This document shows, piece after piece, positions 2,608-61,463 of a stretch of 64,000 bases of DNA. The notes below the pieces were generated by a model. It saw only the letters and a program-made list of their open reading frames with translations, was not told the origin of the DNA and ran no database searches. A program made the translations under genes and the position numbers. The stretch covers positions 43,028,001 through 43,092,000 of the forward strand of contig CM126223.1 in assembly GCA_052327205.1 (NCBI GenBank), given 5' to 3'. Within the stretch, counting starts at the first letter, position 1. Each line of letters begins with the position of its first letter. The DNA comes from Somniosus microcephalus (lineage: Eukaryota).

Positions 2608-4047
2608 TCTGATTGTCTCATGATTGGAGACGGTGGGGTGGCACTATAGTATTACTGTATATATGCTTTTAAGTGGTTGTTGTTGTTTTAAAATTTGCTC
2701 ACGGACAAAAGGTCTCGCTTAAAGGAGTTCGTGGCCCTCTCGGTGCAAAAAAAAGTTAGAAGGAACACTGGTTGAGGCTGATGATTGGGGAAGTACAAAC
2801 CACTAGCTGAGCATGGAAGGGAAAATAATGTGAGTGTGGAGAAGTTGTTGGTGGTTAGTGGATGATAAGGTGGGAATTTGGGTTGAATGACAGTGAAGAG
2901 GAAAGTTAGGAGTTGCAGTGAGTTTGGTGGTCAGTGAAAGAGATTGGTGGGATGAGGTGCGAACGGTGGTGAAGAAAAGAATGGTGGGCAAAAAGCTATG
3001 AAGGAAGGAAGTAAAAAAAAATATCTGTATTAAAGGGAAGGAGCATCTTGAGGTGTGGGAGAAGTAACAAGAGTGTCACCACTGAGCCAAGATATGGCGG
3101 GAGTGGCAGAGCATGGAGGGAGGGGAAGAGTGGCATGCCAATAGGGATTTCAGGTCAACAATGTGAGGAAACGAATGGTGCTTGCTGTGGGGGTGGAAGC
3201 TGCAGAACGTGGCAGAAGGAAGTTGGGGGGGTGAGGGGGAAGTCCTGCTGCATGGGAACAGAGGCGTAACAGCAGTAAGTGGACTGGTGAGAGGGAATGC
3301 ATTGCTGTTCAGCGGCAGGATCAGGTGGCACAGAAGAGTGAGCAAGGCCAGGGCACGTGCAAGAAAGGGTGGCAATAGAAGGGAGAAGGAAACGGCACAG
3401 GTGGAAGCAGTGGAAAGAGAAAGCACGAAGGTGGCAAAAGGGAGTAGGAGAGAGCAGGGAGTAGGAAGAGGCATAGGCATGGTGGGTGGAGAGGAATGAA
3501 AGCAAATACTCCCCCTCCATTCCCCAGAGGATTAAAAAATCTACCCAATGCTTTCCTATACTGGAAAACCCAATTTTGTTTAAATTCAGGGTTTTCCCAC
3601 ATAGCAGGGGAAAGCTCCACCCTTGTTAACATAGGGATCCCAGCCCTGCCCAAAGAAAGACTGGGCTCCTACTGTGAGCAGAAACCAGCTTTAAGTGCTT
3701 TTAAAAACTATCAAAGTGCTTAAGAAACTGAAATGACCAGCGCTGGTGTTTGCAGGGCTCCTGGTGGAAGTTGTGTTTGGTGGTGGGTGATCCAGGATCT
3801 GATCATGGGAAGTGAGAGAGGTCGCAGGTAGGGAATCCTTCCCATAGGTACGAAAGCCCATTCCTGCTGTGAAGTGTAACTGGCTTTACGGTTCTGTAGC
3901 AATTGGGCTGCTTCAAAGATATTAAAGGTAATGAAATTTTAAATAGGATTAATAACTTAATTTTGTTTTTGAAGTGCTCAATAACCAACTCACAGTTCAC
4001 ACTCCCAGTAGGACCAGAACCAGGACCAACAAGAAGCAGGCTTAAAA

Positions 4048-5603
4048 GTGGATAAATCCCCAGGCCCAGACGAGATGTATCCCAGGCTGCTATGTGAGGC
4101 AAGGGAGGAGATTGCAGGGGCTCTGACACAAATTTTCAGAACCTCTCTGGCCACAGGGGAGGTGCCAGAGGACTGGAGGACAGCTAACGTAGCACCATTA
4201 TTTAAGAAGGGTAGTAGGGATAAACCAGGGAATTACAGGCCAGTAAGCCTAACATCAGTGGTAGGGAAATTATTGGAAAAAATTCTGAGGGACAGAATTA
4301 GTCTCCACTTGGAGAGGCAAGGATTAATCAAGGATAGTCAGCATGGCTGTGTCCGGGGGAGATCATGTCTAACCAATTTGATTGAATTTTGAGAGGGGGT
4401 GACTAGGTGTGTGGATGAGGGTAGTGCAGTTGATTCGTCTACATGGGCTTCAGTAAGGCTTTTGACAAAGTCCCACATGGGAGACTGGTCAAGACGGTAA
4501 GAGCCCATGGGATCCAGGGCAATTTGGCACATTGGATCCAAAATTGGCTTAGTGGCAGGAGGCAGAGGGTGATGTTCGAAGGTTGTTTGTGTGACTGGAA
4601 GCCTGTGTACAGTGGTGTACCGCAGGGATCGGTGCTGGGTCCCTTGCTATTTGTAGTGTACAATAATGATTTAGATATGAATGTAGGAGGTATGATCGGT
4701 AAGTTTGCAGGTGACACAAAAATTGGTGGAGTGGTAAATAGCGAGGAGGGAAGCCTCAGGCTACAGGACGATATCGACGGGTTGGTCAGAACAGTGGCAA
4801 ATGGAATTTAACCCTGAAAAGTGTGAGGTGATGCATTTTGGGAGGACTAACAAGGCAAGGGAATACACAATGAATGGTAGGACCCTAGGAAGGGCAGAGG
4901 ATCAGAGGGACCTTGGTGTGCATGTACATAGATCCCTGAAGGCAGCAGGACAGGTAGATAAGGTGGTTAAGAAGGCATATGGGATACTTGCCTTCATTAG
5001 TCGAGGCATAGAATATAAGAGCAGGGAGGTTATGATGGAGCTGTACAAAATGCTAGTTAGGCCACAGCTGGAATACTGTGTTCAGTTCTGGTCGCCACAC
5101 TATAGGAAGAATGTGATTGCATTGGAGAGGGTGCAGAGGAGATTCACCAGGATATTAGCTGGGCCGGAGCGTTTCAGCTATGAAGAGAGACTGGACAGGC
5201 TGGGGTTGTTTTCCTTAGAGCAGAGAAGGCTGAGGGGGGACCTGGCTGAGGTGTACAAAATTATGAGGGGCATAGATAGGGTAGATAGAAAGGAACTTTT
5301 CCCCTTAGTAGAGGAGTCAATAACCAGGGGGCATAGTTTCAAGGTAAGGGGCAGGAGGTTTAGAGGGGATTTGAGGAAAAACTTTTTCACCCAGAGGGTG
5401 GTTGGAATCTGGAACTCACTGCCTGAAAGGATGGTAGAGGCAGGAACCCTCACAACATTCAAGAAGCATTTAGATGAGCACTTGAAACGCCATAGCATAG
5501 AAGGCTACGGACCAAGTGCTGGAAAATGGGATTAGAATAGATAGGGCTTGATGGCCAGCGCGGACACGATGGGCCTCTTTCTGTGCTGTATAACTCTATG
5601 ACT
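4048..5603 (+). mobile_element. 5'-truncated CR1 LINE (RT domain and 3' UTR), frameshifted
   Basis: ORFs 4048-4392, 4443-4811 and 4801-5535 carry KSPGPD, NYRPVSLTS, KAFDKVPH, GVPQGSVLGP, FAGDTK (from FADD) and LEYCVQFWSP. Tail ends CTCTATGACT. CTTAAAA is repeated at both junctions (4041-4047, 5604-5610). Confidence 0.95.
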
Positions 5604-8505: not shown

Positions 8506-9788
8506 TTCCTGGTCGGCATCTGTCAACGTTCAATGCGCTGGACAACTGCATCAACTACAATAGGAAGAGAGACCGCTATAATAGATTTTATTGAGAGTAA
8601 ACAAAGAACTACTTCTGTTCTTTAGTTTTTGTAACTTTCCCTAATTCTATCCATTCTTTAATATAAAGTATAGGTAATTTAAGTTAATTTACTTGCAGAT
8701 GTTTAGCTCTTGTTCCCAATGCGGTCTCATTTTGACTGAACACCCAAGTATAAAAGCTTTAGCATAAAATTGGTATTCACTAAATGTGGGGCTCACTGTA
8801 TCAGCGAAGTTCTTTTTAAACCTGTTGCTGAATATAGGTGTGTGGCATTCCACTTACTGCCTGTAGGTGGTGAGTGAATTACACAAAACAGGAATTACAA
8901 GTTTCTATCTTCACTCTTGTGAAAGAAGAGCTTGATTGATCAGAGTGGTTTATGGTCAGAATCCAATAATCAAAATACAGTCTTAAAACTCTCAGCATAA
9001 TCTATATCTTTTCGTATTATTATAGGTGAAAGGGTAGAAAACCAGACTGTGACAACTGACATTAAGTAACAGCTAAAACAGTTTAGATTTGCTTTTTCAG
9101 TAACCAATTACCAGTAAATATTATAAATGGCCAGTAAATATTATAAATGCATGACCCTGCTTCATAGATATGAAAGGTTTAATTTAAAAAAGAAATCAAA
9201 AAACCAAAGCACACCGTAAGAATTATTTGCTTCTTAAAATCCCACCTCGCTTTTATACAGCGAGCCACCAGTATTCCCCACTTTAAGTTTCCACTGACAC
9301 TGCAGTTTCTCTTTAGACTACAGGACTTCTCAAAATGCCAGTAAGCCAGTTTGTCCCCTTCCTGCACAAAGGCTGAACTGTTAGTCTGAGACAAATGCTG
9401 ATTATCATAATTCAAGGGGATAACCCTTGGTTGTACTATTTGAAAAAAAAACAGAATGCATTTGAACCCAGGATATTATTTTAACAACTTGCATTTCTAC
9501 GTCGCTCCTTATGTGCAGAGACACATCTCAAAGCAGTGGAGAAATAGCCACAGAGCAGGAGGAAAAAGAGAATAGAGAGGCTAAGGGTTGCAAAAGCATG
9601 ATCAAAGAAAAGGGACTTAAAGCCACTCGAAAACACAAAGAGAGGTGGTGAGGTGTGTAGTGTATGTACCTTTAAGAGCCCCTGTGTACTGTAATACCCA
9701 TGGTGTGGAGATGCCGGAGTTGGACTGGGGTGGACAAATGTAAGAAGTCACACAACACCAGGTTATAGTCCAACAGCTTTATTTGAAA

Positions 9789-9825
9789 TCACAAGCTTTC
9801 GGAGCGCTGCTCCTTCGTCAGGTGA
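9789..9825 (-). ncRNA. Minimal type-I hammerhead ribozyme motif (family A), minus-strand copy
   Basis: Exact reverse complement of 10429-10465. Confidence 0.75.
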
Positions 9826-10428
9826 AGTGGAGAAATGCATAAAGACAGAGAATCATGTCAGATGTTTACAGGTAATCTTGCCAACTGCCCTTTATCACAC
9901 CTCGGCAGAGAGATAATCACAGCAATCAAAGGTGTGAATGGTGTCCAAACAGGTCAGTCAGGAAAACATTACATCAAAGAACAATGAGGTGGGGTCACAA
10001 GGGGTCAAATATTGCAGATGCTGGGGTCTGTATGAAAAACAAAAAAAGACAAAAAACCTTTTTTTTTTTGCTGGAAATCACAGCAGGTCCGGCCGTATCG
10101 GTGTAGAGAGAACAAGCCAATGTCGACTTGGCTTGTTCTCTCTACACCGATACGGCCGGACCTGCTGTGATTTCCAGCAAAAAAAACCCTGTTTTTTTGT
10201 TTTTCATACAGACCCCAGCATCTGCAATATCTGGCCCCTTGTGACCCCACCTCATTGTTCTTTGATGTAATGTTTTCCTGACTGACCTGTTTGGACACCA
10301 TTCACACCTTTGATTGCTGTGATTATCTCTCTGCCGAGGTGTGATAAATGGCAGTTGGCAAGATTACCTGTAAACATCTGACATGATTCTCTGACTATAT
10401 AAGCTGTGTCTTTATGCATTTCTCCACT

Positions 10429-10465
10429 TCACCTGACGAAGGAGCAGCGCTCCGAAAGCTTGTGA
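10429..10465 (+). ncRNA. Minimal type-I hammerhead ribozyme motif (family A)
   Basis: TCAC-CTGACGA-A-GGAGC-AGC-GCTCC-GAAA-GC-TT-GTGA. Core CUGAnGA and GAAA, 5-bp stem II, stem I TCAC/GTGA, palindromic AAGCTT stem III; predicted cleavage after 10461. This matches the minimal hammerheads described from Penelope-like elements. Confidence 0.75.
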
Positions 10466-11113
10466 TTTCAAATAAAGCTGTTGGACTATAACCTGGTGTT
10501 GTGTGACTTCTTACTGTAACCACTCGGGCTTTATAAGCCTGTATAGTGTCTTGTATTTTCTAGTTCACCTCCAGACTTTGTTCAGTAAACACCTGTTAAA
10601 CCAACTCCTGCATTCCATGTCTCCATTAACACACGGATACAACAGTGGCGACGAATTGGAAACGGACTTACCTGCAATTCGGCAGCACCTCAAGGAGATC
10701 GATTCCTCAGACGAAGGTCGAAGAAAAAAAAAACTGTGGTTTCACCAGCTTGCCGGGCTGGTGGCAGGTACTGCACTAATCCTTCCTGGGCGGCGGGCTG
10801 GGGCTCGATCGGGTGGCGCTGCAGCGGGGCCGAGCAGCGAGTCGGAAGGCGGAGGCAAACAGAGACGGAGGGTGGAGCACTCGGGAGACGGCCGGCGCTG
10901 CAAAGCAGGTCGGCGTTCGGACCAAGCAGAGGGAGGGAAAAGTCCCAGAGAGTCCGGCGGGAACGAGTCTCCAACTATTAAAAATATGTGTAAATAAAAA
11001 CCGCGTAGAACAGCATTGTCAGCAGCGGCAGCAGCGGGAAAGCGCGGGAGACGCCATTTTTTCTTGGCAGGGAAGAAAGGAAAGTGAGGGAGGCGCCATT
11101 TTTGATTTTCAGG

Positions 11114-14100
11114 ATGCCTAAGACTGGCAATATTACTGCTTTCGATAGTGATATAGAGGATTAGACCACATATGTGGAAAGAGTGGAGGTATATTGCACA
11201 GCGAATGAAGTAGAGGATGATAAAAAGGCATCGGTACTTCTAAATCTGATGGGCGCAAGGACATACGGGCTGTTACGAAACTTAATCACTCCAGCCAAAC
11301 CGATGGACAAGAATTTTAAGGAGATTGTTGATACCCTACAGGAGCACTTAAACCCAACACCGCTGCTGATAGCGGAACAATTCAAATTCTTCAGGAGGAA
11401 TCAGCACAAGAATGAAAGTAACGCTGATTACCTCACCGAATTAAGAAAGCACTGCCAATTCGGGGCAGGACTGGCAGATTCTCTACGAGACAAATTCGTC
11501 TGCGGTCTCCTAAGTGAAGGAACACAGAAAAGGCTACTTTCTGAGAAAGATTTGACACTGGACAAGGCTTTCAGTGTGGCTGTATCATACGAAGCAGCAG
11601 CAAGAGGAGCTGCAGAGATACAGCAAAAGCCACAGGACTTCGGCACCCATGAAATGACATGGGGTTTCGAGAGATGTTATCGCTGCGGCAGATCCACCCA
11701 TGACCACAGGGGCTGCTGGTTCAAGGACAAAGCATGCAGGCAATGCAGAAAGATGGGACACATTGCACGTGTATGCCGATCTGGAAACAAAAAATCCACT
11801 GACAGAAAAAAAATCAATAAGGAAAAGTACAGAAAGGTACAAATGATGACGGACAGTAGCTCCGAAGACCAGAAGAGTGACAGCGACTCCCGAAACAAGA
11901 GACTAAGCTGTCTCAAATTACATAATGTAATTGCCAAAGAAGATTACCAGACCATTTGGGTTACCCTCACGATAGCGGGGTCCCCAGTTAAAATGGAGCT
12001 AGATACAGGATCAGCTCTGACCGTCATAAGTCGACGGGATTACGAGCGGCTATTTCCGCATATACCTTTGAAAGACACATCCATTATCTTGAAGACATAT
12101 ACGGGGCAGAAAGTATACCCCAGAGGGAAAATAAGGGTGCCTGTTGTATACAACGGCAAGGAAATACAGAAGTTGTATTTATACGTTCTGCAAGATGGTG
12201 GTCCACCGCTGTTGGGACGTGAATGGATCAGGAAGATACGTTTAGACTGGCACTCCATTCAGGCACTGACGGTGACCAGTAAGAAAAACAATGATGATGA
12301 CGTCATACCTGAACGATTAAAAGACATCTTGGCCAACGCCAAAGAAGTGTTTCAACAGGAACTAGGAACCTTGAAAGGCGTCACCGCCTCAATAAAAGTG
12401 GAAAATGCGGCAATTCCCAAGTTTTTTAAGGCAAGACCGGTGCCATACGCAATTCGTCCAGCAGTCGAGGCAGAGCTGGAGAATTTGGAAAAGGCAGGCG
12501 TGTTATCCAAGATAGATTGGAGCGAGTGGGCAACACCCATCGTCCCGGTCATGAAGAAAACGTTGAATAATGATAAATCTGAAGAACAGAGAAAAATTTG
12601 CATCTGTGGGGACTTCAAGGTGACTGTAAACCCGGTCCTTCACACGGTACAGTATCCTCTTCCGAGGATAGAAGATATTTTCGCCTCACTATCCGGAGGG
12701 AAATGTTTCACCAAAATTGACTTGGCACAGGCATATCTACAGATGGAGGTTGAGGAGGCCTCTAAAAAGTATCTCACGATAAACACACACAAAGGCCTGT
12801 ACCAGTACAATCGACTGGTTTTCGGAGTAGCATCAGCTCCAGCTATCTGGCAAAGAGCTATGGAGCAAGTCCTGCAAGGGATTCCGGGGACTCAATGCTA
12901 CCTAGACGACATCCTTGTAACAGGAGAAAACGACAACGAGCACCTTGCCAATTTGGAGCAGGTGCTCACTAGGCTGAGAGAACGGGGCCTACGAGCAAAT
13001 CGCCCCAAGTGCGAATTTTTCCAGAAACAAATATCATATTGTGGCCATATAATTAACGAAGAAGGGTTGCATAAATCACCTGAAAAAATTGAAGTGGTCA
13101 TAAAAGCCCCAGCACCTGAAAATGTCTCACAATTAAGGTCGTTCCTGGGATTGATAAATTACTATCATAAATTTTTACCGAACTTGTCGACTGTTCTGCA
13201 CCCTCTTAACGCACTGCTACAAACGGGAGTAATTTGGAAATGGAGCGAAGACTGTAAACGTGCCTTCCATAAATGCAAAGGCTTGATCACGCCCAAGGAA
13301 GTGTTGGCTCATTACAACCCATCACTGCCAATCAGACTGGCGTGCGATGCATCCCCTTACGGCGTAGGTGCGGTATTATCGCATAGATTCCCTGATGGCT
13401 CGGAGCGGCCGATAGCTTTTGCGTCACGCTCATTGAACTCAGCTGAGCGTAACTATGCCCAGATCGACAGGGAAGCACTCAGCCTGGTATGGGGAGTGAA
13501 GAAATTCAACCATTACCTACACGGACAAAAATTTACCTCGTTGACTGACCATCAACCCCTCGTCTCCATATTCAACCCTAAAAAGGGCGTTCCCATTATG
13601 ACAGCGCAAAGGCTACAGAGGTGGTCCCTTTTCCTAGGGGCACACCAATATGACATAGAATACAAAGGATCAAAACAGCATGGGAATGCTGACGGGTTAT
13701 CGCGCCTACCGTTGCCAACGGTAGAAGAGACACCTACAGTGGACCCAGTGGAGATGTTCCACTCAACCATAGTGGAATGTCTACCAGTAACAAATTCTAC
13801 CATTGAAAAGGAAACGAGAAATGACCCGACTCTCTCACGAGTCTACGATTTAATGGTGAAGGGATGGCCAGCACATGGCGAACCACTGTTGCCAGCATTC
13901 TCGCAAAGAAGAGAACAGCTGTCAGTGTGCCGAGGAACCTTGATGTGTGGATCCAGAGTGGTGATTCCACCCAAACTCCAGGATAAAGTGCTAAAGGAGC
14001 TTCACGAGGGGCATCTGGGTGGAGTGAAAATGAAGAACCTAGCCAGAGCGTTTGTGTGGTAGCCAGGTATCGATGGAGACATCGAAGAAATGACCAAGAG

Positions 14101-15076
14101 CTGTCTAGGATGCCAGAAGGTCCAAAACGCCCCACCACAAGCCCCTCTACATCCATGGGAGTGGCCCTCATCTCCATGGCAAAGGGTACACATCGACTTT
14201 GCTGGTCCATTTATGGACTCAATATTCTTAATCGCATTTGATGCACACTCCAAGTGGCCGGAGGTAATAAAGATGTCCTCCACCACCACGGAAAAAACCA
14301 TCACAGTATTAAGGACCATATTTGCCAGGAATGGGCTGCCTGAACAGATCTGTTCTGATAATGGACCGCAATTTGTGTCCGAAGAATTCAGGAAGTTCTT
14401 AAAAAACAATGGGGTTAAGCACTACACGTCCGCCCCATACCATCCCGCCACCAATGGATTAGCTGAAAGGTTTGTCCAGACCTTCAAGAAGGCCATAAAA
14501 GCCATGGGTAATGAAGACATAAATCTACAACATAAGGTAGATAACTTCTTGTTTGCATACAGGAATGCAACACATGTGGTTACAAACCAAACTCCCGCCA
14601 TGATGTTTTTCAATAGAAGACTAAGATGCCGGCTGGATTTGATCAAGCCAAACATCAGAAGGGACATAAAGAACCGGCAATTTCAAGGCATGAATGAAAG
14701 GCCAACTAGAACCTTCCAGATAGGTCAACAAGTTTTGGCCCGGGACTACCGTACCGAGAAATGGCAGCCTGGAACTATTTGCACATGACTAGGACCTCTG
14801 ATGTATACCATGGACATTGGAGAAAGCATAATAAGGCGCCATGCTGACCAGATCATAGAGTCATCCGAAAAGGGACAACCTACACCACAACTCTATACGC
14901 CTAATGATGAAGCAGAGATACCCATAGTATCTACCTCCGATCCGGTGATACTGGAACCAGATGAACCCGACACTGGCATTCAAGCCAAATCGACCTTGCC
15001 AAAAGAAACTACTACACCACCGAGGCGTTATCCGGACCAAGTCAGGAAGCCTCCAGAGAGACTGACTTATAATTGA
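11114..15076 (+). pseudogene. Gypsy gag-pol polyprotein (Gag zinc knuckles, protease, RT, RNase H, integrase) with 3 premature stops
   Basis: One reading frame from ATG 11114. Motifs: CYRCGRSTHDHRGC and CRQCRKMGHIARVC; LDTGS; YLDD; CDASPYGVGAVL; H-H-C-C; HIDFAGP..SDNGPQF..NGLAER. Stops at 11162 (TAG), 14060 (TAG) and 14786 (TGA); no frameshift. Confidence 0.93.
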
Positions 15077-15394
15077 TTAACTGCAGCAAATGTGTAGATT
15101 ATTGTTCTTGTAAACATGTTAATTAATGATTACTTAAAATGTTATGTACTAATTATCTAAAAGGGGAGGAATTGTAGTGTATGTACCTTTAAGAGCCCCT
15201 GTGTACTGTAATACCGGTAGTGACCACTCGGGCTATATAAGCCTGTATAGTGTCTTGTATTTTTTAGTTCACCTCCAGACTTTGTTCAGTAAACACCTGT
15301 TAAACCAACTCCTGCATTCCGTGTCTCCATTAATACACGGATACAACAAAGTGCATGGGAAATGAGTGGCTATCAATGAAGAAGCAATCGAGTG

Positions 15395-25952: not shown

Positions 25953-61463
<35,511 letters not shown>

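Follow-up and report, generated by a model that had tools for sequence, protein, structure and literature searches.

Why does a large inverted repeat built from Penelope sequence turn exactly where it does, and did a ribozyme cut the RNA from which it was copied? The question is raised by a palindrome in the window, by which we mean the whole 64,000-nucleotide stretch of Somniosus microcephalus DNA analysed here. Self-comparison of the window revealed a large inverted repeat at 9699-10514 with ~400 bp per arm, whose axis, 10124|10125, lies in the hexamer GTCGAC. A sequence-only reading had placed this axis at the predicted cleavage site of a second hammerhead and had proposed that cDNA made on a ribozyme-cleaved RNA snapped back at the cleaved 5' end. 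Had that held, hammerhead cleavage would have been tied to the formation of inverted repeats.

Two terminal repeats, head to head, make up the palindrome

Inverted-repeat detection bore out the proposed centre: it recovered the arms as three pieces (9740-10120 / 10128-10514), and across the whole palindrome the arms are identical in 368 of 400 aligned columns. Eight aligned substitutions, plus indels, separate the two arms, and three rare variants are common to both. Each arm corresponds to the pLTR (terminal repeat) of a Penelope family, called family A here, minus its first ~35 nt (Table 1); no ORF sequence remains in the palindrome. The 3' end of the left arm lies about +439 from the axis, in the tail class, with a ~38-nt tail that reaches the ATG of the ORF, and the 15-nt deletion in this arm is flanked by microhomology. 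As read from the sequence, hammerhead A is built from stem I TCAC/GTGA, CTGACGA+A, stem II GGAGC/GCTCC and GAAAG CTT.

The insertion split the 5' LTR of an LTR retroelement (9656-15348) that has short LTRs (~176 bp) and a 965-aa protease-RT-RNase H frame, with these three domains in 11165-14059. Rejoined, the two LTR pieces (9656-9698 and 10516-10644) match the 3' LTR at 15173-15348; compared with that LTR about 4 nt of target are missing at the insertion, and there is no clean target duplication. We considered an assembly artefact and rejected it, since the arms differ from each other, the flanks are not mirrored and the flanks rejoin into one LTR. The reverse nesting, an LTR that starts inside hammerhead A, occurs in two among the matches listed of the 16-position profile described below. 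We conclude that the window palindrome is an ordinary head-to-head pair of Penelope terminal repeats, of a known kind.

Table 1. Features of the palindrome, its insertion site and a comparison case (window coordinates)
Feature	Position	Strand	Description
left arm	9699..10124	-	family-A Penelope pLTR, 5'-truncated inside relic hammerhead; 15-nt internal deletion
right arm	10125..10514	+	same family-A pLTR; 3' end at no-tail site (about +400); one A lost beside axis
GTCGAC	10122..10127	.	native 6-bp palindrome of the window's subfamily, the fold-back axis; junction ambiguous over 6 nt
B-type segment, right arm	10125..10230	+	last core letters of relic hammerhead and downstream segment; 3' part of B-type terminus at start of family-A pLTR
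B-type segment, mirror copy	10009..10124	-	from self-comparison of the window
hammerhead A, intact minimal motif	10429..10465	+	motif read from sequence; predicted cut 10461|10462
hammerhead A, mirror copy	9789..9825	-	motif read from sequence
family-B palindrome, comparison case	39641..39870	.	axis near 39737; core kept in both arms
5' LTR, left piece	9656..9698	+	LTR retroelement; 43/43 identical to 15173-15215
5' LTR, right piece	10516..10644	+	96% to 15220-15348

Family A carries a B-type terminus behind its ORF

Pattern and similarity searches covered the 6.4 Gb genome. Queried with the inner arm, the genome yielded 41 matches. Of the 30 loci that we fetched from these, two were the window itself; all 28 others have the same inner-plus-outer arrangement, and a GIY-YIG-type ORF end precedes most of them. 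One locus, L160, is a full-length family-A copy, a pLTR-ORF-pLTR tandem with a period of 3148 nt in which a stop-free 891-aa ORF (L160:4425-7097) lies between two pLTRs. Pfam places RVT_1 in this ORF at E 1.3e-9; GIY-YIG has no Pfam call, and the C-terminal motif VVYLIRC...YIGET was recognized by eye as a GIY-YIG-type end. Family A has the features of an endonuclease-bearing Penelope-like element, namely a single ORF (RT, then GIY-YIG), pLTRs in partial tandem, a hammerhead motif in the pLTR, and an inverted 5'-truncated copy with a one-ended tail of 30-40 nt. We presume from its architecture that it belongs to the Penelope/Poseidon clade. The second unit of L160 is 99.5% identical to the first, which marks family A as young.

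In the family-A pLTR a relic and the intact hammerhead A, both of them hammerhead-derived motifs, share one orientation and lie ~345 nt apart; the predicted cut of hammerhead A falls ~90 nt before the ATG. An Rfam search at E<=1 gave no matches in the window; these minimal motifs escape Rfam. The relic and the B-like segment follow the stop codon in 100 of 100 among the matches listed of 9,109 (one with an internal deletion), and family A has at least 9,109 copies. Loci L012, L013 and L014 share flanks, as do L097 and L099, and such segmental duplications inflate the pattern counts slightly.

The sequence-only reading had likened the inner ~120 bp of each arm to family B downstream of its hammerhead. 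The likeness is real (66 identities over 97 columns with 15 gaps, and a score of 73, where 2000 doublet shuffles reached at most 36), but it extends over ~105 bp (10125-10230). Taken with the relic, the segment aligns with B ends over ~150 columns at ~66%, starting at the core and reaching B's tail. Family B, with 7,689 exact core matches, is a Penelope family in its own right. ORF remnants, present in 8 of 30 B loci, are about 26-40% identical to A's protein and end roughly 290-320 nt before the hammerhead.

In L160 the B-type terminus behind the stop codon occupies positions 3951-4115, flanked by a direct repeat that matches at 12 of 13 positions, its copies 164 nt apart. From this degree of DNA similarity between families with ~30% protein identity we infer that an ancestor of family A captured a B-type end just behind its stop codon; the similarity and the flanking direct repeat are the two observations that suggest the capture. 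A genome pattern search found no family-A allele without the captured segment. The captured second hammerhead would have decayed while hammerhead A stayed intact. The B-type terminus of family A is fixed, family-wide and old. The earlier proposal that one element joins the termini of two Penelope families was thus right as to the join, but the join is ancestral, fixed in a family of at least 9,109 copies, and was not formed at this locus.

The motif at the axis is a degenerate hammerhead

Six bases past the stop codon, the family-A pLTR reads CTGAYG[C/T]A, stem II, GAGTCG(AC|TC), (A|G)TTGG, and by alignment this motif is homologous to family B's hammerhead. Minimal hammerheads are thought to act as dimers, and the letters of the hammerhead core are needed for cleavage. 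The 15 core nucleotides are described as highly conserved (PMC6155905). The relic core, CTGAYG[C/T]A...GAGTC, is broken in both core boxes: CTGAYG[C/T]A departs from C3 U G A N G A9, and GAGT departs from G12 A A A15. The NUH triplet and stem I are damaged as well, with GAC^ATTGG in the window's subfamily, which has no U and has lost the first stem I pair. An older subfamily has GTC^GTTGG and 4 of 5 stem I pairs (CCCAC/GTTGG). Stem II is still closed by G-C, as GGGTC/GACTC around a 5-nt loop. The two family-A subfamilies differ in how far the relic has decayed (GTC^G vs GAC^A); GACTCGAGTC and GTCGAC are new palindromes that arose through this decay.

Intact versions of the relic did not turn up. 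None of 90 distinct relic sequences has GA at core positions 8-9 or GAAA, there was no intact relic core in 100 among the matches listed of 7,646 and none in those of 9,109, and a version with an intact core and the same stem II had no match genome-wide. The motif CTGAnGA..GAAACGTC, which had been predicted upstream in relatives, is therefore absent. We conclude that the relic is, across the family, a decayed hammerhead that is predicted to be inactive. What survives of the proposed second hammerhead is a hammerhead-derived motif directly upstream of the B-like segment, but not one that is predicted to work.

The axis also lies off the homologous bond. A gap-free core alignment and the stem I pairing of the older subfamily place the site homologous to B's cut 3 nt 3' of the axis, and a pairwise alignment with a 3-nt gap places the same cut 6 nt 3' of it. 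The register in which AATGTC|GACT corresponds to the cleavage position of B, AACGTT|AACT, is thus displaced, with the axis preceding the homologous cut by 3-6 nt. Both arms keep GAC, and in either register GAC lies on the 5' side of the cut. Non-palindromic relatives read ...GACTC GA GTC GAC ATTGG or GA GTC GTC GTTGG; the GAC of GACTTGGC is thus core sequence of the decayed ribozyme, with just one A gone from the right arm.

Fold-backs are not enriched at the relic

We searched the genome for fold-backs with a pattern of exact 12-nt arms and at most 30 nt between them, which missed locus L120 and is blind to arms that start from the +6 register. There were 6 fold-backs at the relic (window included) against 26 at a ribozyme-free control site with a similar copy count (7,646 exact matches for the relic, 7,025 for the control), and with the control 257 nt downstream, nearer the 3' end, this means no excess at the relic, yet no depletion either. 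At least three of the 26 control fold-backs look like segmental duplicates. Spacers at the relic measured 7-30 nt, and two of these fold-backs have the neighbouring palindrome GACTCGAGTC at their centre or are made of it.

The 5' ends of copies gave a concordant picture. We sampled by position, taking the first 100 from a total of 7,025 anchor matches (60 regions fetched, the rest taken from the loci), and obtained 93 usable ends after two tandem, two censored, two duplicated and one mis-chained case were dropped. Two of the 93 lay in -3..+8 of the axis, where 2.0 were expected from the 49 ends in -50..+249. A hot spot of 5' ends at position 663 of L012 proved to be an artefact of a truncated reference. 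Junctions of family-A inversions scatter from +385 to -2295, and other symmetric junctions likewise sit on native palindromes, including ones in the ORF (L122, L120, L140).

Fold-backs are therefore unenriched at the relic. With axes scattered and no excess there, the locus gives no support to the claim of direct evidence linking hammerhead cleavage to inverted Penelope repeats. Relatives without an upstream hammerhead, and axes random with respect to the cleavage site, were the two outcomes that the sequence-only reading had set against itself, and they are in essence what the genome shows.

Transcripts cover the region. RNA-seq reads on the pLTR numbered 3,882 and 5,112 in two runs, on both strands. 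None of the 10 listed read-end pile-ups falls at the relic (L160 3987-3993) or at A's cut (4334), a result to which we give no weight because fragmented cDNA libraries are insensitive to such ends. Family sequence over L160:3800-4700 is abundant in both runs, and its ends lie loosely around both 3' end sites, which fits read-through of copies by host transcripts.

Most fold-backs at intact hammerheads retain sequence 5' of the cut

Hammerhead A has 179 fold-backs genome-wide. Counted by eye among the matches listed, 46 of 50 retain, in one arm or both, 5 or more bases on the 5' side of the cut; of the other four, two keep at most 2 bases and two keep none. The turns among the matches listed fall in the stem III palindrome (7), in stem I (9) and otherwise in stem II. 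Hammerhead B has 285 fold-backs, and 48 of 50 among the matches listed keep sequence 5' of the cut; 2 of 50 have zero spacer, at a position where the cut is in any case the centre of a native palindrome. The axis of the window's own family-B palindrome lies ~29 nt 5' of the predicted cut, 39766|39767; this palindrome has one tail arm and one no-tail arm. Because most of the fold-backs listed for the intact hammerheads retain sequence 5' of the cut, we conclude that the bulk of inverted copies come from uncut RNA. For the bulk of events, inverted copies from uncut RNA turn where the sequence is self-complementary, ribozyme stems being just the strongest of such sites. This useful negative agrees with in vitro work reported in PMC11167929.

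Arms that start exactly at A's predicted cut numbered 102, against 41 at +3 and 28 at -2, as raw counts that include duplicates and variants. In about 38 of 100 among the matches listed at A's cut the arm joins the 5' strand of stem I, and microhomology accounts for these cases. Five palindromes have both arms starting on A's cut, with filler, against none at +2. We also tallied by eye a 16-position profile from 100 among the matches listed of 420, with the first 30 rows checked and 19 rows dropped for indels, substitutions, internal deletions or later insertions. It placed 13 of 81 arms at A's cut, 7 of them stem-I joins; the next bins held 10, 10 and 9, and the mean was 5.1. The excess is weak to modest, not a spike, and it lies at hammerhead A, not at the site named by the sequence-only reading.

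It is conceivable, though we think it rather unlikely, that some arms, a minority, derive from RNA that hammerhead A had cut at CUU^GUGA and so form a genomic footprint of cleavage. If true, this would amount to in vivo evidence for cutting by Penelope minimal hammerheads and for retrotransposition of the cut RNA, in a family whose terminus also holds the captured, silenced ribozyme of another Penelope family. Family A is a natural two-ribozyme control, with one dead and one intact ribozyme in the same RNA, and makes an excess at the intact cut directly testable. The captured dead ribozyme, carried by the whole family, is a minor curiosity.

A probable origin from uncut RNA

The ends of the arms bear on how the palindrome was made. 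Family-A 3' ends cluster near +400 and +439. Among 34 inverted pairs from 38 loci, 28, including the window, combine one tail arm with one no-tail arm, five have a tail arm plus another kind and one has two tail arms, with no pair having two no-tail arms. This pairing implies that the two arms were made in one coupled event. The 40 inversion junctions show microhomology in 23 cases, filler in 14 and blunt joins in 3. Seven of the 40 are near-symmetric (within 15 nt), where 1.27 were expected (permutation, p=1e-4), and several of these sit on native palindromes.

We favour, as the probable course of events, that the head-to-head pLTR pair was made as a short cDNA from uncut RNA that stopped at the native GTCGAC and folded back. 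The element's endonuclease and RT would prime the first strand at the tail start site, and synthesis would stop about 440 nt in. The self-complementary 3' end of the cDNA would then prime the mirror arm, with the loss of one base, and the intermediate would resolve at the no-tail site and join the target's other end. The fold-back step itself is plausible. An RNA template that happened to end at GAC can give the same junction sequence: GTCGAC is self-complementary, so a blunt hairpin at an RNA beginning with GAC also fits. The arms may differ because the insertion is old or because two templates were copied.

Annealing of two cDNAs yields the same junction as fold-back does, and twin priming is accordingly a possible, though less probable, origin. 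Here both ends of a double-strand cut would prime cDNAs, from the tail and no-tail sites, on uncut RNA, and the two same-sense cDNAs would anneal via GTCGAC; in a variant, proposed in PMC3846280, self-priming takes place on an antisense transcript. The enzyme is reported to cut and extend both strands from two start sites (PMC11167929), 33 of the 40 junctions are asymmetric and 14 carry filler, and family A is transcribed on both strands in the two RNA runs. However, an independent choice of start sites predicts both-tail and no-tail pairs, which make up 1 and 0 of the 34, and the near-symmetric excess, some of it with little microhomology, better fits an intramolecular turn.

A deletion between two GTCGAC copies that removed an originally longer spacer, of the kind that most copies have, strikes us as quite improbable. 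Many inverted pairs do have spacers that run from hundreds to thousands of bases, and the left arm shows that a microhomology-flanked deletion of 15 nt did occur, but a deletion at the centre would need to create symmetry, not break it. In long perfect palindromes the centre tends to be lost asymmetrically. Moreover, the class seen most often is that of very short palindromes close to the 3' end (the 179 at hammerhead A), as truncation during insertion would lead one to expect.

That a working second hammerhead cut the RNA at GUC^GAC, and that cDNA snapped back at the cleaved 5' end, we regard as very improbable. The axis does fall on a GUC triplet in a hammerhead-derived motif, and a blunt hairpin fits apart from the one lost base. 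Against this, only GA, not GAAA, stands between stem II and GUC, the core is broken in 90 of 90 relic sequences with no intact version in the genome, and there is no junction excess. Snap-back at a cleaved end is thus at odds with a degenerate relic, an axis off the bond on a native GTCGAC, and scattered junctions. At the intact hammerheads, 46 of 50 and 48 of 50 among the matches listed keep sequence 5' of the cut, and the window's family-B palindrome keeps the whole core in both arms. A one-off chimera of A and B termini at this locus has next to no probability: the inner segment does resemble B, but the same arrangement recurs in all 28 other loci and is contiguous with the ORF in the intact L160 copy.

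Comparison with known systems

L1 5' inversions arise by twin priming, the inverted segment being made during insertion with microhomology at the junction, and to our knowledge they do not duplicate the 3' end. The window resembles them in insertion-time inversion and in microhomology, but here the 3' end is on both arms.

Inverted, 5'-truncated pLTRs with palindromes at the junction are described in PMC3846280, which proposed self-priming, and clades without canonical hammerheads are reported to form the same inverted repeats and tails (PMC8557442). As far as the descriptions in these two papers go, the published pairs are like the window in their head-to-head arms, junction palindrome and one-ended tail of 30-40 nt. 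The window differs from them in that it has no ORF sequence, its junction lies in a decayed second hammerhead and there is no clean target duplication. In the open-access literature that we searched, we found neither a map of junctions relative to the hammerhead cut nor a captured second hammerhead.

Minimal hammerheads in Penelope pLTRs are reported to have low activity, and dual motifs are described 100-700 bp apart on opposite strands (PMC4209133). Hammerheads A and B are like the type described there in their core, the extra base after position 9, the G-C-closed stem II, the palindromic stem III and the short stem I. Family A is unlike the dual motifs of that account: its two motifs are in the same orientation ~345 nt apart, and one of them is dead and of another family's type. 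Retrozymes are reported to derive from pLTRs (bioRxiv 10.64898/2026.07.22.740005).

The closest experimental parallel is Poseidon of Anolis, for which the in vitro work in PMC11167929 describes two RT start sites that define the tail, finds cleavage unneeded and reports no RNA reads that end at the hammerhead cut. Family A is like this element in having two 3' ends ~38 nt apart (about +400 and +439) and a hammerhead near the start of the ORF. The Anolis hammerhead, as described there, overlaps the start codon, whereas the predicted cut of family A lies ~90 nt before its ATG.
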